Shown here piece by piece: positions 2,153 to 36,117 of a stretch of DNA of 42,116 nt. The stretch lies in sequence record MN850623.1; one strand, written 5' to 3'. The translations under genes and the position numbers were made by a program. The notes beneath the pieces are model-generated. The model did no database searches. It was not told the DNA's origin and was given only the letters and a program-made list of their open reading frames with translations. Origin of the DNA: Escherichia phage sortsyn. How positions within the stretch are numbered: position 1 is the stretch's first letter; each line of letters opens with the position of its first letter.

Positions 2153-4405
2153 ATGGAGAACACAATGGCCCGCGACGTATACGCTGATATTGGTATGCCT
2201 TCGACGCCTTTCCTACGTCTGGACCGCTTCGCGGCGCTGGTCAACGGGAAGATCTATGTAGGCGTGAAAGATACCGACCCGCTGAACCCAGCGAACCAGA
2301 CCCAGGTCTTTGTCGAGGACGAGGACGGAACGCTGACGCCAATCCCGCAGCCAGTACGGACCAACGTCTCCGGCTATCCGGTCTGGAACGGTCAAGTAGT
2401 CAAACTGATCACCAAGATCGAATCATCCATGAAGGTGATGGACGCGAACGACGTCCAGCAATTCTATTTCGGGAACCTGTTCAAATATGATCCGGTCCAG
2501 ATGTGGAACCTTCTCACCTCGCCGACTGGCTGGGAGTACGTGGGGACGAATTACGGCGTTTTGAAAGAGTCGATTCAGGGCTGGATCACTCCTTTTCAGT
2601 TCGTCGGGAAAGCGCCATTCACCAGCGTGTCCGCAGCCATCCAAACCATGTTTGACACGGCTCAGGCCCAAAAGCTGGCAGTCTGGGCCATTGGCTGGGA
2701 GGGAACGCTGGACGGCAACGTGACCGCGACGGATATCCTCATCATGGGGGGAACGTGGAAAGGTACGCCGGACTTTTTCATGGACAATTCCACGCTGAAA
2801 GGCGCGACCATCAAAAACGCCCGTATTCGCGTATGGGGCGGCGACGTAAGGATCCGCGATTGCCTGTTTGACGGCAAGCCGACCACGAGCAAGGTCGCAA
2901 GCGTAATGATGCAAGCCCTACCGAAAAACGCGACTGTGGAAGTCACGGAGAGCGAGTTCCGCAATGGCCTTTACGGCATCTTGCAGCAGGGGACCGGGGA
3001 ACTCGTCACGCGTGGCCTGTATCGTAACTTGTCGTTTTACGACATGGGCGGCGACGGGATCGAGCTTAACGTGGTCCAGCGCCACTACGACGACGGATGC
3101 GTGATCGAAAATATCTACCTGGAGAACATCGACTCCACCGGACAGGCTCCGATCAACCCGTCCAACTGGGGGATCGGGATCGGCGTCGCTGGTCAATCTC
3201 CGTATGGTATCGACACGCCGGACGAGAACTTCGCGAAGAACATCACGATCCGCAACGTGACGGGCGTCGGCGTCCGCCAGCTTGTTCACTTCGAAATGGT
3301 CCGCGACTCCGTGATCGAGAACATCAACGGCGACCCGGATCAGAACGTGTCTAACGGCTCCGGCCTGACGCTGGCGACGGTCCTCTGTTATGGCTCGCGC
3401 CGCGTGTCGATCGATGGAGTTCGCGGGGAGCCGATCGTCCAGTCCGGGACCCTGGCCTCCGACGTCCGCGTGGTTATGCTGGAGTGGGGGACTAACGCCG
3501 GAGTGGGCGCTCGTGGTCCTTGCCAGGACATGACCGTGAGGAACGTCTATTCCAAGACCGGGCGCTTTTACGCTGGCGTGGGTACGGAAAAGGCCGGGGC
3601 AACCAACCGTTGCCGATTCAGTAACATCAACGTGGCTAAATTCTCCGTTTTCGGCGTGGCTACCGAACTGGATTTAAACGATATCTCCGGCGATATCTTC
3701 GACGCGATCGGGGATGATTCCAGCGGCGGGACGCCTTCGAATGGTTATATCGCTGGCGGTCGCACCGTGTTACGCATGAATAATGTGAACTTCGGCGCGT
3801 ACCCGGATCAGGGCTGGAGCCGTTGCGCATACAGCCAGATTGATTGCGTTAATTCGAACGTGTTCGCCCGTCCGTACCCTCGTTCGGGGACTAACGGCGG
3901 CGTAGGCGCTGAAATGCAGCCCTCTAACCACACTTACCTGATCCCTACTCCTGACCAGATGGACGGCGTAGGGATCTGGGATGGTAACGCGTTCCCGACC
4001 GGGCGCGAGTTCATGGAGGGCGATCTCCTGGTCCGCAACGATGGCAAGATCTTTGCCGTCGAGACGTCCGGCGCATACCTCCCGGCGGTCGCAGAATTGC
4101 AGATTAAAGCGACGGCAGCGGGCCAGACCTACCTCGCGCAAAATTACGCGATGGCTGGCAACAAGTCGGATCAGGTCTGGTTTTATAAGACCCCACTGAC
4201 GCAGGGGACCCGCATCACGATCCCCGGAGCCGGGGCTGGCGGCGCGGCGCTTAACACGGTGATCACTCGCGCACCGTACAGCACCAACCCAAGCAACCCG
4301 ACCGCAGAGATCAGGATCGACATTGCGGACGCTATCGTGACTGGAACCGTGGCGGGCGTTCAACTGGCGGCAACGAAGCCGATCTCCTTCCGAACTCCGG
4401 TATAA
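2153..4405 (+). CDS. Tailspike protein: P22-type head-binding N-terminal domain plus parallel beta-helix receptor-binding/depolymerase domain
   Basis: N-terminus (VNGKIYVGVKDTDPLNPANQTQVFVEDEDG...YPVWNGQVVKLIT) matches the P22 gp9 head-binding domain pattern as recalled; central region has beta-helix-like repeats (NITIRNVTGVGV, VIENINGDP, MTVRNVYSKTG). Confidence 0.9.
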   Translation: MENTMARDVYADIGMPSTPFLRLDRFAALVNGKIYVGVKDTDPLNPANQTQVFVEDEDGTLTPIPQPVRTNVSGYPVWNGQVVKLITKIESSMKVMDANDVQQFYFGNLFKYDPVQMWNLLTSPTGWEYVGTNYGVLKESIQGWITPFQFVGKAPFTSVSAAIQTMFDTAQAQKLAVWAIGWEGTLDGNVTATDILIMGGTWKGTPDFFMDNSTLKGATIKNARIRVWGGDVRIRDCLFDGKPTTSKVASVMMQALPKNATVEVTESEFRNGLYGILQQGTGELVTRGLYRNLSFYDMGGDGIELNVVQRHYDDGCVIENIYLENIDSTGQAPINPSNWGIGIGVAGQSPYGIDTPDENFAKNITIRNVTGVGVRQLVHFEMVRDSVIENINGDPDQNVSNGSGLTLATVLCYGSRRVSIDGVRGEPIVQSGTLASDVRVVMLEWGTNAGVGARGPCQDMTVRNVYSKTGRFYAGVGTEKAGATNRCRFSNINVAKFSVFGVATELDLNDISGDIFDAIGDDSSGGTPSNGYIAGGRTVLRMNNVNFGAYPDQGWSRCAYSQIDCVNSNVFARPYPRSGTNGGVGAEMQPSNHTYLIPTPDQMDGVGIWDGNAFPTGREFMEGDLLVRNDGKIFAVETSGAYLPAVAELQIKATAAGQTYLAQNYAMAGNKSDQVWFYKTPLTQGTRITIPGAGAGGAALNTVITRAPYSTNPSNPTAEIRIDIADAIVTGTVAGVQLAATKPISFRTPV

Positions 4406-4954: not shown

Positions 4955-4986
4955 GATCGGCTCCTTCATTGGTTAACGTCTCCGTG

Positions 4987-6049: not shown

Positions 6050-6769
6050 TTAGAAGTCCTCAATATTCGGTTTATCTTCCGCCGCTGGCGCTTCCTGCTG
6101 TGGCTCTACCGGGGCGGCGGGCTGTTCTTGTGCCGGGGCATTATCGGCGGCTTTTTTCTTCTGGACAACCGAGGCCGGATTAAATCCTTTCGACTCGCTG
6201 GCGCGGAGAGCCGCCTTGCGGGTAATGTGCCAGTCACGGACAACCTTCACGGAGGCTTGATCGTCTGCCAGGGCGTGGACAACTTTCCCCACGGCTTCGT
6301 CCAGCTTTTGCACGTCCTCGATCCCTTCCAGATCTGCGATCCACTGGCGGGCGGTTTTCTTCGTCGCGTTCCCGTCGTCGTCTGCCTGGGTGATGCCGAA
6401 CAGCGCCGCCAGGTGATAGCGTCGGGCATAGGTGATCGCCGAGCCGACAGAGTGAGCCGCCGCGCCCTTACCGAACGAGAGAGGCATTTCCATAATCGCC
6501 GTCATGTACTCGCCGGACTCGTGGAGGACCATCGTCTCCAGCGGTAACACGAGCATGTTATTTTTTTCGGTGCAGGGCATAGGCGTCTGAACGACGATCA
6601 GACCGTTCGACTCAAGCGCCGGGCGAATGGTGGCGATGAAGGATCCCAAGTCCGCATACCAGTTATGCAGGTGATTATTTTCCGTGTTCTTTTTGGCTTC
6701 CGACATCATAGCGATACGGGCCTTTACCATTGCCGGGACGATCGCGGCGCGTGATTCTGAAAATTCCAT
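6050..6769 (-). CDS. erf: ERF-family single-strand annealing recombinase
   Basis: Motif [18 protein letters not shown] matches the Erf core (P22 Erf: TSSYARKYCLNGLFGI as recalled). Confidence 0.8.
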
Positions 6770-6771
6770 AA

Positions 6772-7812
6772 TTACACCTCTTTAAAATATTCTTTGTAAC
6801 GTTGTTGTAAGTAAATCGGAGTGGACAGCGCGATCTCCTCTTGCCCGTTCGCATAGGCGGGCCACACATCACGCTCGCGGCAGTGTTTGAGGACCTGGAG
6901 CGCCGTCTTGTACTGACCGCGACCGACGAGCAACTGTTCCGGCGTTAAGCGATTCATGAGGGCCAGCCACGGCTCGTCTTTTTCCTGTACGAGTAACTTC
7001 GTACCGTTCGGATCCTGCTGGTAGGCCAGCTTGAAACAATCATGTTGTAAAGCCATTTTGCACCAGTAGCCGAGATCGTGGGCCAGTCGCCCGAACTTCT
7101 CCGGCTCCGCGCTTTGCGTCGTCTTAAAGTCGATAATCTCCCCGACGTCCGTCACGCGGTCGAGCCGGACCTTAACGGGAACGCCGTCGATAATACAGAA
7201 CAGCGACAACTCCGGGACCCCCGTCTCAATGATCCGGCGGTAATTGTGGTTAGCCAGCAGAACGTCGCGCATTGAGTGAACGCGGTCCCAGTCCTTCGCC
7301 GGGACGATCTCGCGACCGTTCGCCTCTTTGATGGCGTTCGCCTCGATCTCGTGCCAGATGTGGAGCACTTCGTCCGGGGCCTGGACAGCGCGACACATCG
7401 CGATCAGTTCTTCGGCGGTTTTGTTGGAGTAGCCCTTCTGACCGCGATCCTTTAACCAGCTTTGCATTTTCGCTACAGAGGTGATCAGGTCCGGGAAGTC
7501 GTCCGGGTTAGGCAGACGGAAGAACTCACGAGCGAAGCGATCCGGCTCAAGTAACATCGTGTGGGAAGTGGTCCCGAACGTGAGCGGCTTCTGGGCGGAA
7601 TTGAGTTTTTTTGTTGCGGCTTCCTGTGCCTTCTGGAAACGCCAGGCGGCGGGGCATTTGCTGTAAATGGTCCAGAGGCTCGACCCGGTAATGTAGATCT
7701 CGTCCTCGTGGTATTGCTCATTGGTTAACTGGTCGGCGCTCCGGGCATCGACAAACATCGAAGCGGCTACGTCGTAGGCCGGGAGCGCTGGGATCAATCC
7801 GTTCGTTTGCAT
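6772..7812 (-). CDS. PD-(D/E)XK family exonuclease (RecE/exonuclease VIII-like, DUF3799-type)
   Basis: Nuclease core VRLDRVTDVGEIIDFKT with downstream Y..K; 4-nt ATGA overlap with erf start suggests translational coupling. Confidence 0.6.
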   Translation of the reverse strand: MQTNGLIPALPAYDVAASMFVDARSADQLTNEQYHEDEIYITGSSLWTIYSKCPAAWRFQKAQEAATKKLNSAQKPLTFGTTSHTMLLEPDRFAREFFRLPNPDDFPDLITSVAKMQSWLKDRGQKGYSNKTAEELIAMCRAVQAPDEVLHIWHEIEANAIKEANGREIVPAKDWDRVHSMRDVLLANHNYRRIIETGVPELSLFCIIDGVPVKVRLDRVTDVGEIIDFKTTQSAEPEKFGRLAHDLGYWCKMALQHDCFKLAYQQDPNGTKLLVQEKDEPWLALMNRLTPEQLLVGRGQYKTALQVLKHCRERDVWPAYANGQEEIALSTPIYLQQRYKEYFKEV

Positions 7813-13630: not shown

Positions 13631-13633
13631 GTA

Positions 13634-14192: not shown

Positions 14193-14577
14193 AGTAACAG
14201 CGCAGATTATCGGATGGACTGACGAGCAGGACGCGGAACTGACCCGCCTCGCCGGGACCATGCCGCCGCACGAACTGGCGAAGCGCATCGGTCGCAACTT
14301 CCGCCAGATGCAGGTCCGGGCCTCTAAGCTGGGCCTCTCCCTGGCGTATAACCGGACGTACACGCAATGGACGACGGAGGAGGACCGGAAGCTGGTCCGC
14401 TTCTGGGAGGGACTTCTGACCGATGAGGATCTGGACGAACTGGTGATCGCCACTGGTCGCCGGGTGATAGTACCGACTGAACTCACCCACGCGCATGTCG
14501 CGAACTGGCTCAACAAATCGCGTCCGTCAATTCGCGGACGCCTGGCAAAATTCAAGAAAGAGGGGAAAATCGCATGA
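14185..14577 (+). CDS. GcrA-like DNA-binding transcriptional regulator (two WT[DT]E[QE]D repeats)
   Basis: WTDEQDAELTRLAG...HELAKRIGRNFRQMQVRASKLGLS resembles the GcrA N-terminal domain as recalled; second repeat WTTEEDRKLVRFWEG; GTG start with AGGAGG SD. Confidence 0.5.
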   Translation: MGKVTAQIIGWTDEQDAELTRLAGTMPPHELAKRIGRNFRQMQVRASKLGLSLAYNRTYTQWTTEEDRKLVRFWEGLLTDEDLDELVIATGRRVIVPTELTHAHVANWLNKSRPSIRGRLAKFKKEGKIA

Positions 14578-14675
14578 ACAACTTACGCGGACACAAATAC
14601 GTTATATGGGGCGTAATCGCAGCAAGCGCCGCGCTGTGGGCTTTAATCGGTTTCGGCGTGTCGATGGTACTATAA
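14574..14675 (+). CDS. Small hydrophobic (single transmembrane helix) peptide, 33 aa
   Basis: ATGA start/stop overlap with upstream gene; MNNLRGHKYVIWGVIAASAALWALIGFGVSMVL; ends right before a terminator. Confidence 0.35.
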   Translation: MNNLRGHKYVIWGVIAASAALWALIGFGVSMVL

Positions 14676-14712
14676 AAAAAGGGCCGCTTAAAAAGCGGCT
14701 CCTTTCGTTTTA
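14676..14712. terminator. Rho-independent terminator, bidirectional
   Basis: A-run, stem GGGCCGCT/AGCGGCTCC, then TTTCGTTTT. Confidence 0.7.
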
Positions 14713-14773
14713 ACGCCAGAGATGATCTACAATGCCGGGGCAGTATACCGCACAATTTCACGAGGACAAAATT

Positions 14774-15538
14774 ATGGCTTTTTGGCATCGGCAATACCGC
14801 GCTGATCTTTTCGGATGGAAGGTATCGCGCATCCTTGATCCCTCCGCTCCTGGTGTACATCAAAAAGATGTTATCTGGCTGGCGTCTGAACCTGCAAACC
14901 TCGATCCTACTGGGATGTTTTATTTCCAGCCTGATCCGAAGTCAGACCAGCCTCTCCAGTTTTTGGTAAACCTTAGCGGCAACAACGGCAGCGACGTCAC
15001 GGGATCATACGTGCCTAACGGCTCCTTAAAATCATTCTCCGTACAAGTAGCCGGGGGCGTTCCTCCGTATACCTTCGCATGGTTCCGGCGTTCCGGCGGC
15101 GTGGACAACTCCGTGGGGACTAACTCCAGCACCTACTCGATCCCCGCCTACTCCTCCAGCAATAACGGGGATTATTTTTGTCGCGTGACCGATGCGCAGG
15201 GCGTCATGATCGAATCGCTACGCGAGCGCACCAAAGTATTGATCAGGCTGACGACTAACCTCCCGTTAACTGATGCGTGGGCCGTGGGCGTGTCTGACAG
15301 CCTTGCGATCGTTGTCTCTGATGGCCTTACCCCGTATACCTACCAATGGCAGAAGTCCACGGACGGCGGGGCAACCTGGAGCAACGTCGCTAACGGTGGG
15401 ACCGTCTCCGGGGCCACTACTGCAACGCTGACCAACTCCGCCCCCGCGCTGGGTGATGCCGGAATGTACCGCTGTATTATCACCGACTCAGCGGGCTATA
15501 AAGTCCAGTCCGTACAATGCGCCGTAACGGTGGCATAA
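14774..15538 (+). CDS. Moron-like protein with two immunoglobulin-like domains
   Basis: Two Ig-type repeats (PPYTFAWFRRSGG...GDYFCRVTDAQG and TPYTYQWQKSTDGG...GMYRCIITDSAG); GAGGA SD before ATG 14774 (ORF track start 14732); flanked by terminators; first 60 nt about 52 percent GC. Confidence 0.7.
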   Translation: MAFWHRQYRADLFGWKVSRILDPSAPGVHQKDVIWLASEPANLDPTGMFYFQPDPKSDQPLQFLVNLSGNNGSDVTGSYVPNGSLKSFSVQVAGGVPPYTFAWFRRSGGVDNSVGTNSSTYSIPAYSSSNNGDYFCRVTDAQGVMIESLRERTKVLIRLTTNLPLTDAWAVGVSDSLAIVVSDGLTPYTYQWQKSTDGGATWSNVANGGTVSGATTATLTNSAPALGDAGMYRCIITDSAGYKVQSVQCAVTVA

Positions 15539-15568
15539 AAAAAGGGGGCCAACTGGCCCCCGATTTAT
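15539..15568. terminator. Rho-independent terminator, bidirectional, between convergent blocks
   Basis: A-run, stem GGGGGCC/GGCCCCC, then GATTTATT. Confidence 0.7.
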
Positions 15569-16086
15569 TGCTGACGCTCCACGGCGTCGTAATTCCTTTC
15601 GCATACCTCCCCGGCGGTGATCGCCTTCTCCGCTATATCAGCATACCGTCCAGCGACTTCGCCAGTCCGTCGTAACAGGTCGGCGTACATTCTGGCGGTC
15701 TTTTCCCCTGACGCCCTTCCGAGGGCAGCGGTCTGATCAGCGGCTTCGCGTCGGGTGGCTTCCTTGCTGGCTCGTTCGAGCAACCGATCAAGGGCAGCGC
15801 CAGCAGTAGCAGCAGCGGCGCGAGCTTTTGCGGCTTGTTCATTCGCATATTTTACGGACTCCTCGCGGGCAATGGCCCGGCCTTGTTCAATGATACGGGC
15901 GGCGGCTTGTGCGTTCGCTTCCTGGGTGGATTCCTTCGCGATCCTGGCATTGTCGCGAGCGGTCCAGCCCCGGTCCGTCCAGGCCGAGCCAGCCCAGAAA
16001 GATCCCCCCAGCGCCAGCAGCACGACAACGACGAGCAGCAGCGATCGCCAGTGAGTCGAGAGGAACAACCGGAGGGCGGCGATCAT
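15565..16086 (-). CDS. Rz-type inner-membrane spanin
   Basis: N-terminal TM helix (SLLLVVVVLLALGG), Ala/Arg-rich coiled-coil periplasmic domain, ATGA overlap with endolysin stop. Confidence 0.8.
   Translation of the reverse strand: MIAALRLFLSTHWRSLLLVVVVLLALGGSFWAGSAWTDRGWTARDNARIAKESTQEANAQAAARIIEQGRAIAREESVKYANEQAAKARAAAATAGAALDRLLERASKEATRREAADQTAALGRASGEKTARMYADLLRRTGEVAGRYADIAEKAITAGEVCERNYDAVERQQ
15633..15848 (-). CDS. Rz1-type outer-membrane lipoprotein spanin, embedded out of frame in Rz
   Basis: Lipoprotein signal with lipobox LIGC, Pro-rich mature part, entirely inside the Rz gene in another frame. Confidence 0.75.
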   Translation of the reverse strand: MRMNKPQKLAPLLLLLALPLIGCSNEPARKPPDAKPLIRPLPSEGRQGKRPPECTPTCYDGLAKSLDGMLI

Positions 16087-16562
16087 TCTCCGGCTACCTT
16101 ACCGCCAGCAGCGCGGAAATATTTCAGGAAGTCGTCGATCGTCTCCGTCCGTTGTCCATACTTCGAACCCGGCAGGGAGGCCCAGATGTTATTGACCTTT
16201 GCCACGGCTTCGCGGATCCGGCCCGCGTCAATATCCGCCAGCGCTTTACGCTCGCTGATCTGCTGGAGGGCGATCTGGTCCTGTGACGCCGGGGAGAAGT
16301 CGGGGAGGTTTAGCTGGTCGATGTAATGCTCCGCATACTTCTTAAGCACCTGATAGCGGCCCGCCGCCGTGGAGTTAATGCCGAGCTTCGGCAGCTTCAC
16401 CAGTCGGCCCGGATGCTTCGAATAGTCGGAGAACAGGGAGCCGCCCACGATCACGTCGTAGCCGTGATTTTTGGTCTGCTGGCGACCGTTGTCCGTACCT
16501 TCGCCCACGGCGATCGCGTCCAGAAACGCCTTGCGCTGTGGCGTAACTTCAAATTTTGCCAT
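16083..16562 (-). CDS. Endolysin, lambda R-type lytic transglycosylase
   Basis: RKAFLDAIAVGEGTDNGRQQTKNHGYDVIVGG...AAGRYQ...NIWASLPG is near-colinear with lambda R as recalled. Confidence 0.95.
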   Translation of the reverse strand: MAKFEVTPQRKAFLDAIAVGEGTDNGRQQTKNHGYDVIVGGSLFSDYSKHPGRLVKLPKLGINSTAAGRYQVLKKYAEHYIDQLNLPDFSPASQDQIALQQISERKALADIDAGRIREAVAKVNNIWASLPGSKYGQRTETIDDFLKYFRAAGGKVAGE

Positions 16563-16902
16563 CGGTCTGATCCTCTTTGCTGGTATGCGCTGGAGTGGCG
16601 CGGATTTTTCTCAGGAATGGGATCTTTTCGCTGGCCCAGTCGAGCGCAGTCTCCACGCCGACGTAACCCAGGAACACGGAAGCGAGATAACCCCACGTAC
16701 CATGATCGACCCCGAAGAATGATAAAATATTATTCATCCCGAACGCGACGGCAGCGCAGATCGCCCCGCCGCTGACGATATCGCGGAACGGGTGGCGCAA
16801 TTGCCAGTGACGGAACACCGCCACCGATGCCGCGATGAATGAATAACCTAACTCAACGCGGTATAGCTGAAACAATTGCCATAGCGTCGTATGCTCAGAC
16901 AT
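16549..16902 (-). CDS. Holin, lambda S-like
   Basis: LASVFLGYVGVETALDWASEKIPFLRKI parallels lambda S ITSVFIGYIGTDSIGSLIKRF; start moved to Met at 16902 because the ORF-track N-terminal extension contains the upstream terminator hairpin. Confidence 0.8.
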   Translation of the reverse strand: MSEHTTLWQLFQLYRVELGYSFIAASVAVFRHWQLRHPFRDIVSGGAICAAVAFGMNNILSFFGVDHGTWGYLASVFLGYVGVETALDWASEKIPFLRKIRATPAHTSKEDQTDGKI

Positions 16903-18218: not shown

Positions 18219-18264
18219 CGTTATCTCTCCGGTAGTGGGCGACCCATTGCCGCCCGGTGAAAGA

Positions 18265-18307
18265 ACTATAACAACATTTGATAAATCGCTTTTAGCAATT
18301 CGTGCTA
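18265..18307 (-). promoter_or_regulatory. Promoter cassette copy C (minus strand): palindrome TAGCACGAATTGCTA plus TGtTATAGT extended -10
   Basis: Palindrome 18293-18307; hexamer 18265-18270 on the minus strand. Confidence 0.5.
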
Positions 18308-18900
18308 TCCGGGTAAAGATATTCGCTCAACCGGGCCACCAGGTCCGAGTCCGGCCCGATCGGGTACAGCCCGCCGTCGTTGTTTACCGCGTGATGGATC
18401 TCAGCCAGCAATTGCTCCGCCCGCTGGAGCTTGTTCGTCGCCGCGTTATCATGCCCGATCAGCTTCGTGATCTCAGTCTCCAGGCGTCCGCCGAGTTCGG
18501 TCGTCGTGCAGTGTTCGGCCCACTCGCGAGACTCCAGCAGTTTGACCACGGCCCACACGTCCGAGTCGAGGCCGACAGTAGGGCCAGGCTGGAGCCGTGG
18601 CTGGAGTTCGTCGAGCGTCTGCTGGGTGGCGTTTAACGTCCGGCGGATCTTGTCCTGTTCGGACTTGCTCAGATCCAGGATAAGCGGATCAGGCGGCAGA
18701 CCCAGCAGCAGAGGGCGAACCTTTTCGAACGGCTCCACGCTCAGACAATCCTCCATCGTTCCCTCCTCCGTGTCGGGGAGCGTGTAGTGGAGCCGGGCGC
18801 GTCCGGTCTTTTCGTCCAGGCTGAACGAATTGATCGCGGCGATACTCAGGAACCACTCGCAATTAAATTCCGGCTCACCTACTGCGATATATCTGATCAT
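18292..18900 (-). CDS. Hypothetical protein
   Basis: 202-aa ORF; last five codons plus stop are encoded by promoter cassette copy C. Confidence 0.5.
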   Translation of the reverse strand: MIRYIAVGEPEFNCEWFLSIAAINSFSLDEKTGRARLHYTLPDTEEGTMEDCLSVEPFEKVRPLLLGLPPDPLILDLSKSEQDKIRRTLNATQQTLDELQPRLQPGPTVGLDSDVWAVVKLLESREWAEHCTTTELGGRLETEITKLIGHDNAATNKLQRAEQLLAEIHHAVNNDGGLYPIGPDSDLVARLSEYLYPDSTNC

Positions 18901-22710: not shown

Positions 22711-22755
22711 CCACCACCGCCCGGTCGAGAGCCGGGCATCCTGGGAGGATCTACC

Positions 22756-23115
22756 ATGCACCCGATGCACCCGCACCACCCGAACCACCAGCCGCCAGCC
22801 ATCCCGGAGATGATGCTGGCCCTACTGATCGGCGGTCCATTCGATGGCGATCGCCTGACCGTTTCCCGCGACGTCGATCACATACAGCGCATTGAGGCTA
22901 AGGAGGTGGACGTGATGCCAGCGCCTTATGACCAGGGCGTGACCAGTTTCAAGTCGTCGATCCATACATACTGGCGGCAACACTGGAACCTCTCCGACGG
23001 CGTGAGCCGTGGCGACTTTGCGCTGTACATCCACGAGACGATCAGGCCGGACGTGTTCGACGTCGTGCAAGCGCTGATCATGGGCTACCGTCAACCGAAG
23101 GAGGCCACGCGATGA
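22756..23115 (+). CDS. Hypothetical protein with His-rich N-terminus
   Basis: 119-aa ORF, GGGAGGA SD. Confidence 0.45.
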   Translation: MHPMHPHHPNHQPPAIPEMMLALLIGGPFDGDRLTVSRDVDHIQRIEAKEVDVMPAPYDQGVTSFKSSIHTYWRQHWNLSDGVSRGDFALYIHETIRPDVFDVVQALIMGYRQPKEATR

Positions 23116-23465: not shown

Positions 23466-23738
23466 ATGATCTACGAACTGATCGCCTCTTTCCTGATGCT
23501 GGGCGTCGCTTATATCTTCATGGAGTGCAGGGCGGGCGCAGCGGCCTACCTGGGCCGCAAGATGGCGGAGGAGGTGAGGGCCATCCCTCACTCCCTGATC
23601 CCTCTCGTCGCCTTCATCGTGGCATTGCTGGCGGTCCTCGTGCTGGCTGTTACGCTGGTGATCTGGCCCTACTTCGCGTGGAACGACTGGCGAAACGGGA
23701 CACTGTTCAAGGCCGGGCGTTATGACGGCATCGAATAG
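23466..23738 (+). CDS. Membrane protein
   Basis: Two predicted TM helices; stop TAG is the first triplet of cassette copy E. Confidence 0.45.
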   Translation: MIYELIASFLMLGVAYIFMECRAGAAAYLGRKMAEEVRAIPHSLIPLVAFIVALLAVLVLAVTLVIWPYFAWNDWRNGTLFKAGRYDGIE

Positions 23739-23778
23739 CACGAATTGCTAAAACGCACTTATCAAATGTTGTTATAGT
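23736..23778 (+). promoter_or_regulatory. Promoter cassette copy E: palindrome TAGCACGAATTGCTA plus TGtTATAGT extended -10
   Basis: Palindrome 23736-23750; hexamer 23773-23778. Confidence 0.55.
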
Positions 23779-23825
23779 TCTTCTCGACGGCGGGAAATGG
23801 TCCCGCCACTGACCGGGAGAACATC

Positions 23826-31880: not shown

Positions 31881-32290
31881 ACCAGGAAAAAGTAATCCGC
31901 GCCGTTCTTCTGGCTCAGGCCGACGAGATGGGGATCCTCGACAAAGTGAAGGCGCACGAGGCCCGCCTGGCGGCTCGCTTCATCCAGCAGCCGACCGAGG
32001 AGGATCTGGCGGCGTATGGCCTGGCGCTGGCGCTGGTCGGCGCTCGCGCTTCGGAACTCATGACCAACGCGGAGCCGCAGGTGAAGGCGGGCGAGGTGGA
32101 ACCCGCTCCGATCGAGGTGGACCTGATGCCGACGGCGGAGCAGGTGGAGGCGGGCATTAAATCCCTGTGGGACGTCATACCGGGCGCGATGGATCAAGTC
32201 GTGCAGGACGACCCGGACGGCTCGGACGCGGTATTTTCTGACGCGGTGACGTTCGTCTGGCAAGGCATGATCGGCGCTCGCGCCAAATAG
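31877..32290 (+). CDS. Hypothetical protein
   Basis: 137-aa ORF; stop TAG is the first triplet of cassette copy F. Confidence 0.45.
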   Translation: MNQEKVIRAVLLAQADEMGILDKVKAHEARLAARFIQQPTEEDLAAYGLALALVGARASELMTNAEPQVKAGEVEPAPIEVDLMPTAEQVEAGIKSLWDVIPGAMDQVVQDDPDGSDAVFSDAVTFVWQGMIGARAK

Positions 32291-32330
32291 CACGAATTGC
32301 TAAAACAGCCTGATTATCAAATGTTATATT
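32288..32330 (+). promoter_or_regulatory. Promoter cassette copy F: palindrome TAGCACGAATTGCTA plus TGtTATATT extended -10
   Basis: Palindrome 32288-32302; hexamer 32325-32330. Confidence 0.55.
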
Positions 32331-32380
32331 GATTGTGTCGGCGGGGAATGGTCCCCGCCACTGACCAGAGAGACTACAAA

Positions 32381-34237: not shown

Positions 34238-35497
34238 ATGGCTAACCAGTTAGCGAAGGATCTCGAAATTGCTTTCGAGGAATATGTGGAGAGCTTCGAG
34301 GCGTCTTGCGTCGTGTCGAAGAACGCGGCGAAGTTCCGCCCCGGTGATCAGACGATGCAACGCGCCGGGGACGTGATCCACCGTCCGCAGCGTTACCACG
34401 CTGATATCATCGAAGGTCTGGATCTGACCGGACAAGCCGGGACCGATATCGTCCAGCGCCTCGTCCCTTCCGTGTTCAAAGAACCTCAGAACGTTCTCTT
34501 TAAGCTGGACGCTCGCGAAATGCGCGACCCAGAGCAGCGTAAAGAGATGGGCCGAGCAGCGGGCCAGCGCGTAGCCGCGAAGATCGACTCCGATCTGATC
34601 GCTACCGCAGCGCGTTACGCGACCCACGTCGCCACCACTGGCGACAACAGCACCGGAACGCTAGGCGGCGACCTGTGGGACGCAGCAGCGCAGATCGGCG
34701 CACAAATGACCGCGATCGGCATCCCGCAGGGTACGAATAAAAAAGCCTTCTGGAACTCGTTCTCAAACAAGTTCCTGGCGAAAGAACTCGGATCCCGCGC
34801 ATATGCTCAGGGCGCAACCCTGACCGCATACGAAAAGGCGCAGATCCCGGACGTGGCTCGCTTCATGTCCTTTGAGACGGATATTTCCGCACGTCTGGGC
34901 GCTGGCTCCGCAGCAGCGATCACCCTGGCAGCGGCTCCGGCTCACAAAGTCGAAGCGAAAGACGCGAACGATCTCCCGGTCGATAACCGCCAGGGCGTGA
35001 TCACCGTGTCCGCAGCCCACGGCCTGGTCGCTGGTGATGCCTTCACCATCGCGGGCGTGAACATGGTCCATATGATCAGCAAGGACACCACGGACACCCC
35101 TCAAGTGTTCCGCGTCCTGGGCGTGTCTGGTAACAACATCACGATCACCCCTCAGATCCTGCCGCCGGACAACGCCGATCTGCCGTCTCGCCCTTACGCG
35201 AACGTGGACGCGAACGCCGCCAACGGCGCGGAACTGACCGTTATCAACAACACGGCATCTAATGCTAACATCCTGTGGGCCGACGGCTCCGTGGAACTGA
35301 TGTTCGGTAATCTGGCGTTCCCTACTGGTCAAGGTCCGCAAGTAATGCGAGCCACCACCAAACAGGGCGCGACTCTGATCATGTCCTACGCGTTCGATCA
35401 CATCGCGGGCGTGACCACCTGCCGTTACACCACGCTTTACGGTTGTTCCGTCCTCGTGCCGGAATACGTGGGCCTGGTACTGCCTAACCAGCAGTAA
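34238..35497 (+). CDS. Major capsid (coat) protein, P22 gp5-like
   Basis: Position after scaffold, size 419 aa, local similarity to P22 coat as recalled (FTIAGVNMV, ILWADGSVELMFGNLAFPTGQ). Confidence 0.9.
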   Translation: MANQLAKDLEIAFEEYVESFEASCVVSKNAAKFRPGDQTMQRAGDVIHRPQRYHADIIEGLDLTGQAGTDIVQRLVPSVFKEPQNVLFKLDAREMRDPEQRKEMGRAAGQRVAAKIDSDLIATAARYATHVATTGDNSTGTLGGDLWDAAAQIGAQMTAIGIPQGTNKKAFWNSFSNKFLAKELGSRAYAQGATLTAYEKAQIPDVARFMSFETDISARLGAGSAAAITLAAAPAHKVEAKDANDLPVDNRQGVITVSAAHGLVAGDAFTIAGVNMVHMISKDTTDTPQVFRVLGVSGNNITITPQILPPDNADLPSRPYANVDANAANGAELTVINNTASNANILWADGSVELMFGNLAFPTGQGPQVMRATTKQGATLIMSYAFDHIAGVTTCRYTTLYGCSVLVPEYVGLVLPNQQ

Positions 35498-35586: not shown

Positions 35587-36117
35587 ATGAACCAGCGTTC
35601 CTATTCAAAAACCGCCATCGCCGCAGTTTTAACCGTAATGCTTTACTCCCGCCCCGCTATTCTGGGACGCGAACGCATCACCGGGCTGGAAACCATGCGC
35701 CGCCCGCACACTGACGGCCCCTACGTCCGCGCCATCTTCCCGGAGCAAGAAGCCGCCGAGCGTCTGGAGTCTGGCTTCTGGGTGGATCATCCGAACAAAC
35801 TCCCGGCGCTGGATGCCGCGATCGCCGAGGCAGCGGAGAAGGAGGCCAAAAAGGACAAGCAGGAGGCCGACGACGAAGAAGCCGCCCGCCTGAAAGAGAA
35901 GCAGGACGCAGAGGCCCAAAATAAGGCCCCAGAATCGACCGCTACGGCCTCCGAGCAAAAAGACGCACCGAAGGCCGACGAAGTGAAGAACGAGCCAGAG
36001 AGCGGCGCAGAGGCTCAGGAATCCACCCAGGAAGCGAAGGCCGACGAATCCAAGCCGAAAGACGGCGAGAAGGTAGACGGCGCGAAAGTTCCGACCGACA
36101 AGAAGGCTAAGAAATAA
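35587..36117 (+). CDS. Hypothetical protein with Lys/Glu/Ala-rich C-terminal tail
   Basis: 176-aa ORF between coat and gp4-like gene, GAGGA SD. Confidence 0.5.
   Translation: MNQRSYSKTAIAAVLTVMLYSRPAILGRERITGLETMRRPHTDGPYVRAIFPEQEAAERLESGFWVDHPNKLPALDAAIAEAAEKEAKKDKQEADDEEAARLKEKQDAEAQNKAPESTATASEQKDAPKADEVKNEPESGAEAQESTQEAKADESKPKDGEKVDGAKVPTDKKAKK

Follow-up and report, generated by a model that had tools for sequence, protein, structure and literature searches.

An immunoglobulin-domain gene exchanged within a fixed slot of the Escherichia phage sortsyn genome, and its probable role at the virion surface

Introduction

Several characterised phage proteins join immunoglobulin (Ig)-like domains to a part that binds the capsid. 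[quoted passage not shown] The hoc gene is, moreover, among the most divergent genes of T4-like relatives, with an identity of 29% in a phage whose identity to RB69 is 94% (PMC11162368). Here, we analyse a gene of Escherichia phage sortsyn that codes for a 254-residue protein with two Ig-like domains (hereafter the Ig gene and the Ig protein) and lies in the segment from 14,676 to 15,568 of sequence record MN850623.1; the whole stretch of 42,116 nucleotides was analysed and is referred to as the window. Proteins of this type are already known, as the Hoc/pb10-like Ig accessory proteins of phages, and relatives of the sortsyn protein have been annotated as such.

Like pb10 and Sf14 gp20, the Ig protein begins with a small N-terminal domain, behind which stand Ig-like domains recognisably homologous to theirs, and the number of Ig domains (one in pb10, three in gp20, two in sortsyn and three in the homologue P0039) varies among relatives in both groups. 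It differs from them in that its beta-rich N-terminal domain of about 70 residues resembles neither the N-terminal domain of pb10 nor the helical bundle of gp20, in sequence or in fold, and in that sortsyn is a P22-like podovirus whose Ig protein is a putative virion component. With Hoc of T4 and RB49, the Ig protein shares tandem Ig-like domains, the lack of a signal peptide and a gene that is the most variable between close relatives; it is, like Hoc, probably dispensable and exposed, and both RefSeq and PHROGs label the sortsyn family 'Hoc-like'. In T4 Hoc, however, the capsid binder is C-terminal, whereas the sortsyn protein has no C-terminal counterpart of Hoc domain 4: it ends with its second Ig domain, and its sole non-Ig domain is N-terminal and unrelated. 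The 'outer capsid protein' of Cronosvirus (GAP227_44, Dev-CD-23823 gp45, Arno160 ORF45) has a homologous Ig pair, 47-53% identical, is similar in size, adjoins lysis genes and has a function that is likewise putative (PMC7246868), but it begins with a different N-terminal domain of about 110 residues (type 2, see below) and is encoded within the late operon of an Autographiviridae genome.

Sortsyn (MN850623) has been described as a Murrayvirus with a genome of 42,116 bp and 59% GC, and with IME_EC2 as its closest relative (Olsen et al., PMC7552041). In our analysis, the GC content of the window was 59% and IME_EC2 was the closest record, with about 95-99% nucleotide identity across almost the full length. 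In addition, the annotators of ST231 cite 'sortsyn_18' and 'sortsyn_19' for the genes directly upstream of the Ig gene. The RefSeq annotation of IME_EC2 holds a P22-like structural module (portal, scaffold, coat, adaptor, needle and ejection proteins, and tailspike) and neither an integrase nor an RNA polymerase. By this comparison, sortsyn is taken to be a lytic Murrayvirus with a P22-like virion. Since IME_EC2 has no annotated integrase and the phage is lytic, there is no lysogenic-conversion setting for the Ig gene.

Results

A fixed slot with exchanged content

The Ig gene lies where an initial annotation, made from the sequence, had placed it, between plus-strand genes for DNA metabolism and regulation and a convergent lysis cassette (holin, endolysin, spanin). 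The same slot holds an Ig gene in six annotated relatives (IME_EC2, ST231, Lumpael, Sortsne, C130_2 and Skarpretter), and the relatives with the gene span four genera, Murrayvirus, Sortsnevirus, Hungariovirus and Skarprettervirus. The order is a D5-like regulator gene, a small membrane open reading frame (ORF), a hairpin, the Ig gene and then the convergent spanin, endolysin and holin genes. When IMG/VR was scanned for the exact pattern, 10 contigs proved to carry a single copy of the hairpin each, with the ATG of the Ig gene 56-70 nt downstream in every one of them, and no genome of the clade was found in which the flanking genes are adjacent. The locus is thus a fixed slot with swapped content, not a sporadic extra gene.

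When compared with IME_EC2, the sliding nucleotide identity is 98-100% in the flanks, drops to about 60% between position ~14787 (codon 6 of the 254-residue ORF) and position 15532 (the stop codon), and is back to about 100% at the terminator that follows the gene. Synonymous divergence (dS) is 1.0-1.8, that is, saturated, inside the Ig gene and 0.02-0.075 in the flanking genes. The ratio of non-synonymous to synonymous divergence (dN/dS) is 0.2-0.27 in all three domains of the protein, which indicates that the Ig gene is functional and under purifying selection. At the protein level, the Ig protein is the most divergent of the proteome, with 61% identity to its IME_EC2 counterpart, as against 100% for the coat protein, 99.7% for the portal, 99.5% for the tailspike and 97-100% for the tail, adaptor and needle proteins. 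Because dS is saturated inside the gene and near zero in its flanks, the borders are sharp and selection is purifying, the content of the slot is an old allele exchanged by recombination between near-identical flanks, and not the product of rapid change in place; by the same comparison, no other gene of the sortsyn genome has been exchanged to nearly this extent. The sole close known relative of the sortsyn allele is on a metagenomic scaffold of the same phage type, at 99% identity, and a search for the exact allele in another backbone turned up only this relative.

The divergence of the gene could also have arisen by rapid diversification in place, through positive selection or targeted hypermutation. 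The Ig protein being the single most divergent of the proteome would fit this explanation, and in other phages diversity-generating retroelements act on Ig-like and C-type-lectin folds. However, in-place change does not agree with a gene saturated in dS between near-unchanged flanks, with the low dN/dS or with the sharp borders; moreover, the window holds no repeat of the gene region that might act as a template, a reverse transcriptase is not among the annotations of IME_EC2, and Ig pairs of other virus families are closer to that of sortsyn than are pairs from the same genus (see below). A diversity-generating or hypermutation model was rejected on the dS pattern, and we consider diversification in place, in whatever form, to be very improbable.

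Elsewhere in the window, the only other stretch near the size of the Ig cassette that lacks a nucleotide match to IME_EC2 is at 22752-23110. The window lacks a counterpart of IME_EC2 gp52, and the neighbouring gp51 is only 69% identical. This stretch is a further site of replacement, smaller than the Ig cassette and set in a group of small early genes.

N-terminal domain types and movement of the Ig pair

At least three unrelated N-terminal domains stand before the same Ig pair, each tied to one phage backbone. Type 1 (about 70 residues, MxFWHR...) is that of the Murrayvirus/Sortsnevirus/Hungariovirus/Skarprettervirus clade and type 2 (about 110 residues, MFVxxAPFLG...) that of Cronosvirus-like Autographiviridae such as GAP227, in which the late region holds the homologue, with the large terminase subunit on one side and the endolysin on the other; the third type was found in a 75-kb phage. 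The sortsyn Ig pair shares 53% identity with the pairs behind the type-2 and third N-terminal domains, but only 39-40% with those of Lumpael, from the same genus, and Sortsne, and 34% with that of Skarpretter. Since pairs from other families are closer than pairs from the same genus, the N-terminal domain follows the phage backbone and the Ig pair moves between backbones, so that the pair travels between unrelated phage families via fusion to lineage-specific N-terminal domains.

The type-2 domain also exists by itself, as g54 of phi80-18 (40% identity, E = 5e-17), and g54 was scored as particle-associated by liquid chromatography-tandem mass spectrometry (supplement of PMC7316996). In RefSeq, g54 (L004, positions 6484-6891) is annotated as 'recombinase', although its homologue is the N-terminal part of the Ig protein of GAP227; the label looks wrong.

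Relation to morons

The initial annotation described the locus as a moron, and this description holds in part. The locus, probably a conserved transcription unit of one gene, is self-contained and horizontally mobile, and its composition is deviant: the GC content at third codon positions (GC3) is 0.64 for the whole gene and 0.52 for its N-terminal part, against 0.72-0.79 for most genes checked, with the holin and spanin genes also at 0.64. The AT-richer 5' end that had been pointed out was also found, with a GC content of 0.50-0.52 across 14400-14999 (0.50 at 14600-14999) against 0.59 for the genome. Thus, as in lambdoid morons in the sense of Juhala and Hendrix, a single gene with terminators upstream and downstream, a likely promoter and a deviant composition has moved horizontally. 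Unlike in those morons, the gene is not an extra one, as the slot is filled in all relatives examined, and prophage expression does not come into play in a lytic phage.

True insertions have also occurred close by. Lumpael (L005, positions 3348-3560) has an additional gene for 70 amino acids between the Ig and spanin genes, and ST231 (L002) has a few dozen added bases just after position 4964, at the Ig/spanin junction; the convergent junction therefore also takes insertions.

Domains and relatives of the Ig protein

The ORF, the Pfam matches and an AlphaFold2 model agree on the 254-residue protein with two Ig-like repeats that had been proposed. Pfam Ig_3 matches with 41 bits (cut-off 30), over two stretches, Ig_2 with 33.1 bits (cut-off 27) and I-set with 25.4 bits (cut-off 23.7). 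In the AlphaFold2 model, built on an alignment of 26 sequences, residues ~76-160 and ~161-254 form two Ig beta-sandwiches with a predicted local distance difference test score (pLDDT) above 90. The two domains are 28% identical to one another (E = 6e-8), and the window holds no second Ig gene. Neither a signal peptide nor a lipobox or membrane helix was found in the protein, the maximum Kyte-Doolittle hydropathy over 19 residues being 1.36, so the protein is expected to stay cytoplasmic until assembly or lysis.

A protein search returned 38 homologues. The protein matches PHROG 2973 (E = 3e-49, residues 2-253 against profile positions 41-282 of 310), whose name, 'Hoc-like head decoration', is an annotation label known from similarity. 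Among solved structures, the top sequence match in the PDB is 9ncf, an 'Immunoglobulin-like domain protein' for which no paper was found; the other relatives include Sf14 gp20 (9c2d_S, E = 4.9e-31), T5 pb10 (5lxk and 8zvi, E ~1e-16) and, more weakly and over the Ig domains only, RB49 Hoc (3shs, E = 9e-8). The second Ig domain matches the Ig domains of all three, gp20, pb10 and Hoc. Full-length Foldseek searches of the PDB and BFVD gave Ig-domain matches only, and the type-1 N-terminal domain matched no known fold or family. When a type-1 profile was run against 1.84 billion proteins, only three cluster representatives were recovered, in each of which the domain is N-terminal and stands before two or three Ig domains.

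Start codon, terminators and other expression signals

The coordinates of the features are given in Table 1. The reading frame is open from 14732 to 15538 on the plus strand, for 268 amino acids, and the 254-residue form begins at ATG 14774. Every relative starts at the homologous M-x-[FY]-W-H-R, and the upstream ATG is absent in C130_2 and Skarpretter and out of frame, through a 1-nt indel, in IME279; for these reasons, ATG 14774 is taken as the true start. ATG 14732 was rejected as a start codon on these grounds, and also because it overlaps a conserved -10-like block and because residues 1-12 have a pLDDT below 50 in the AlphaFold2 model.

Table 1. Features of the Ig gene region and copies of the operator-like box in the window.
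Feature	Position	Strand	Remarks
Upstream intrinsic terminator	14681..14701	+	GGGCCGC-loop-GCGGCTC, 9 pairs, then CTTTCGTTTT to ~14711; folding free energy (dG) -16.5 kcal/mol, z = -3.2
Invariant block	14717..14735	+	CA(G/A)AGATGATCTACAATGCC, holds TACAAT 14728-14733; candidate promoter/regulatory element
Ribosome-binding site	14762..14766	+	GAGGA, 7 nt before ATG 14774; read directly from the sequence, kept in relatives
Coding sequence of the Ig protein	14774..15538, including stop codon	+	254 amino acids, 27.2 kDa, isoelectric point 5.6
N-terminal domain, type 1	14774..14989	+	~70 amino acids, small, beta-rich; proposed virion anchor
Ig-like domain 1	14999..15253	+	NGDYFCRVTD = DxGxYxC motif; Pfam Ig_3, Ig_2, I-set; pLDDT >90
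Ig-like domain 2	15254..15535	+	contains GDAGMYRCIITD; second Ig_3 stretch; pLDDT >90
Bidirectional terminator	15544..15561	both	GGGGGCC-AACT-GGCCCCC, 7 G-C pairs, A-run and T-run; dG -17.2 kcal/mol on either strand, z = -2.8 and -3.2
Operator-like box copies	11322, 13632, 18289(-), 22339, 23734, 32286		box at 13632 serves the operon ending at 14675

Two hairpin terminators bracket the gene, as had been noted, and they are the strongest terminator-like sites within the 4-kb region scanned. The upstream hairpin, whose sequence GGGCCGC-loop-GCGGCTCCTTTCGTTT is conserved across the four genera, closes the plus-strand operon before it and contributes to the cassette's conserved left border. The downstream hairpin is common to the Ig gene and the convergent lysis cassette and forms the right border.

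A -10-like TACAAT had also been reported, and it is present at the location given, but taken by itself it is no more than expected by chance; no acceptable -35 lies near it, and a scan for sigma-70 promoters found no plus-strand site before the Ig gene. The 17-nt block AGATGATCTACAATGCC around it is unchanged in nine Murrayvirus/Sortsnevirus-type genomes and the sequence on either side varies; in C130_2 and Skarpretter, TATCAT is found at the equivalent distance from the hairpin. As a phylogenetic footprint, AGATGATCTACAATGCC is consistent with the -10 region of a promoter, and the Ig gene probably has its own conserved promoter-like element. A transcript starting about 7 nt downstream of position 14733 would have a leader of about 33 nt and would leave out ATG 14732. 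The gene may be driven by an activator-dependent late promoter, or by regulated read-through of the hairpin. Folding of the leader RNA is unexceptional (z = -1.3), and an Rfam scan of 14400-15800 with E up to 1 gave only two sub-threshold chance matches.

A different element is repeated in the window. Six copies of the operator-like box AATAGCAC-N3-TTGCTAAAAC, with the palindrome TAGCA...TGCTA inside it, are present against 0.02 expected by chance, and all copies except that at 32286 have a gene start within about 170 nt downstream. At 23734-23814, 32286-32366 and 18241-18311 (minus strand), the box is extended to a repeat about 80 nt long that closes with the stem-loop CGGCGGGAAATGGTCCCGCC. 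The box probably marks the principal class of regulated promoters in the phage. No copy precedes the Ig gene or the lysis cassette, and the Ig gene is therefore not driven by this class of element. The lysis cassette mirrors the Ig gene in its arrangement: a terminator hairpin (16977-16957, minus strand, dG -13.1 kcal/mol), no box, the genes, and the shared bidirectional terminator.

Neighbouring genes

Just upstream of the slot, at 14574-14675 on the plus strand, is a 33-residue ORF, MNNLRGHKYVIWGVIAASAALWALIGFGVSMVL, whose product has a single hydrophobic helix (hydropathy up to 2.08). The ORF starts at an ATG that overlaps the stop codon of the upstream gene (ATGA) and is preceded by GAGGGG; the ORF is kept in relatives and is annotated in ST231 and Lumpael, and not in the RefSeq record of IME_EC2.

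On the other side, the DUF2514 spanin gene (15565-16086, minus strand) contains, in another frame, a 71-residue ORF (15633-15848, minus strand) with a lipoprotein signal (...LPLIGC) and a proline-rich body. These are the features expected of an Rz1-type o-spanin, and its counterpart in the metagenomic relative (L022) matches Pfam RzoQ. The holin gene (16552-16902, minus strand) most likely starts at ATG 16902, giving 117 residues as in IME_EC2, and not at the TTG of the 139-residue ORF.

The spanin gene also shares an inverted repeat of 25 nt, 96% complementary (15911-15935 and 36017-36041), with a 176-residue ORF after the coat-protein gene, and in L022 the stretch common to both is 57 nt long; the two genes seem to have a short stretch of encoded peptide in common. 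The 176-residue ORF (35587-36117, plus strand) lies between the coat-protein (34238-35497) and adaptor genes and belongs to no Pfam family; at its position, Sf101 has only a gene for 62 residues. This ORF could code for a second head-associated accessory protein.

Discussion

The initial annotation had suggested an accessory surface or host-interaction role, and this is still the most plausible function; the nearest characterised relatives by sequence are virion proteins. By analogy with these, we think it probable that the Ig protein is an accessory virion-surface protein that is held by its N-terminal domain, most likely on the capsid, and displays its Ig pair for weak adhesion to glycans. 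The N-terminal domain would attach the protein to the assembled particle, with the capsid surface as the most likely site, in the layout of T5 pb10 and Sf14 gp20, and the two Ig domains would point outward and make weak, reversible contacts with glycans of the host capsule, lipopolysaccharide (LPS) or mucus-type polymers. Such contacts would raise the encounter rate or the retention of the phage. The protein would be dispensable for assembly, and its specificity would be retuned by a swap of the whole cassette or of the Ig pair. For phage Ig-like domains in general, Fraser and co-workers in 2006 and Barr and co-workers in 2013 are said to have proposed a role in glycan adhesion.

Several observations weigh against a place on the capsid, or on the virion at all. 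A literature search found no virion proteomics or structures for Murrayvirus, Sortsnevirus, Hungariovirus or Skarprettervirus, and no experiment that places a protein with a type-1 N-terminal domain in the virion. The likeness to decoration proteins is confined to the Ig domains, and tail tubes and fibres bear these Ig domains as well, as in the Sf11 tail-tube protein gp24 (9occ) and in BFVD proteins named tail fibre or tail protein. The N-terminal domain differs by 36% between sortsyn and IME_EC2 despite identical capsid proteins. The Ig gene is outside the structural module, at the end of the DNA-metabolism/regulator operon, and it is absent from temperate P22-like phages with capsid proteins about 70% identical, for example from Sf101, whose coat protein is 72% identical; on this wider scale, the gene is accessory. 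Finally, the particle proteome of phi80-18 also contained DNA polymerase, helicase and ligase, and with replication enzymes in the same preparation the particle association of g54 is weak support.

Some of these points would suit a protein that sits on the tail, neck or collar instead of the capsid, as a whisker-like or tail-decorating element that aids the first reversible contact with the cell. Besides its match to the Ig domain of Sf11 gp24, the Ig pair has about 35% identity to the C-terminal portion of wac/fibritin genes of the RB43 type; GenBank annotators have named homologues 'major tail subunit', 'neck whiskers protein' and 'tail protein', and particles of the relative Kc237 have a collar and a short tail (PMC8402661). 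The tail-type names derive, however, from Ig similarity only, and the same is true of 'Hoc-like head decoration'; none of these names locates the protein. Variation of the N-terminal domain between phages with identical capsid proteins would also speak for the tail, but the near-identity of sortsyn and IME_EC2 extends to the tail, adaptor and needle proteins, so that this argument does not discriminate. Moreover, an N-terminal anchor followed by C-terminal Ig domains is the documented layout of the capsid decorators pb10 and Sf14 gp20. We regard a tail or neck location as unlikely. Less likely still is that the gene codes for a true moron-type factor that acts in the infected cell and not in the virion, in superinfection exclusion, in host takeover or as an accessory to lysis. 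Its position outside the structural module, its organisation as a self-contained unit with its own terminators, its GC3 below that of most genes checked and the lysis-gene neighbourhood seen in three unrelated backbones (Murrayvirus, GAP227 and the 75-kb phage) all fit such a factor. Yet a protein with no signal peptide, lipobox or membrane helix would not reach the envelope unaided, and the gene is present in every relative examined, not sporadically; the phage is lytic, with no integrase annotated in IME_EC2; in addition, its closest characterised relatives by sequence are virion proteins and a stand-alone type-2 N-terminal domain has been seen in particles.

What goes beyond routine annotation, within a virion-surface role, is the sharply bounded exchange in near-identical genomes together with an unclassified, lineage-specific N-terminal domain. 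Tentatively, and with more doubt than for the surface role itself, the type-1 domain might be an undescribed, clade-specific virion-anchor fold, and the locus a plug-in slot in which the conserved borders serve as recombination linkers, providing a 'soft' determinant of sticking that is independent of the tailspike. The left linker would consist of the upstream hairpin together with the -10 block and codons one to six, and the right one of the C-terminal codons plus the bidirectional terminator; through these linkers, complete Ig cassettes, or Ig pairs of other virus families, could be swapped in.

Sortsyn and IME_EC2 constitute a natural experiment, with an identical capsid, tailspikes that are 99.5% identical and Ig alleles that are 61% identical. 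If the proposal of a plug-in slot is true, these phages would have, besides the tailspike, a second, 'soft' determinant of sticking to glycans of capsule, LPS or mucus. Accessory proteins with Ig-like domains are believed to set where particles linger, be it in mucus, on capsules or on non-host cells, which bears on phage therapy and on phage ecology.

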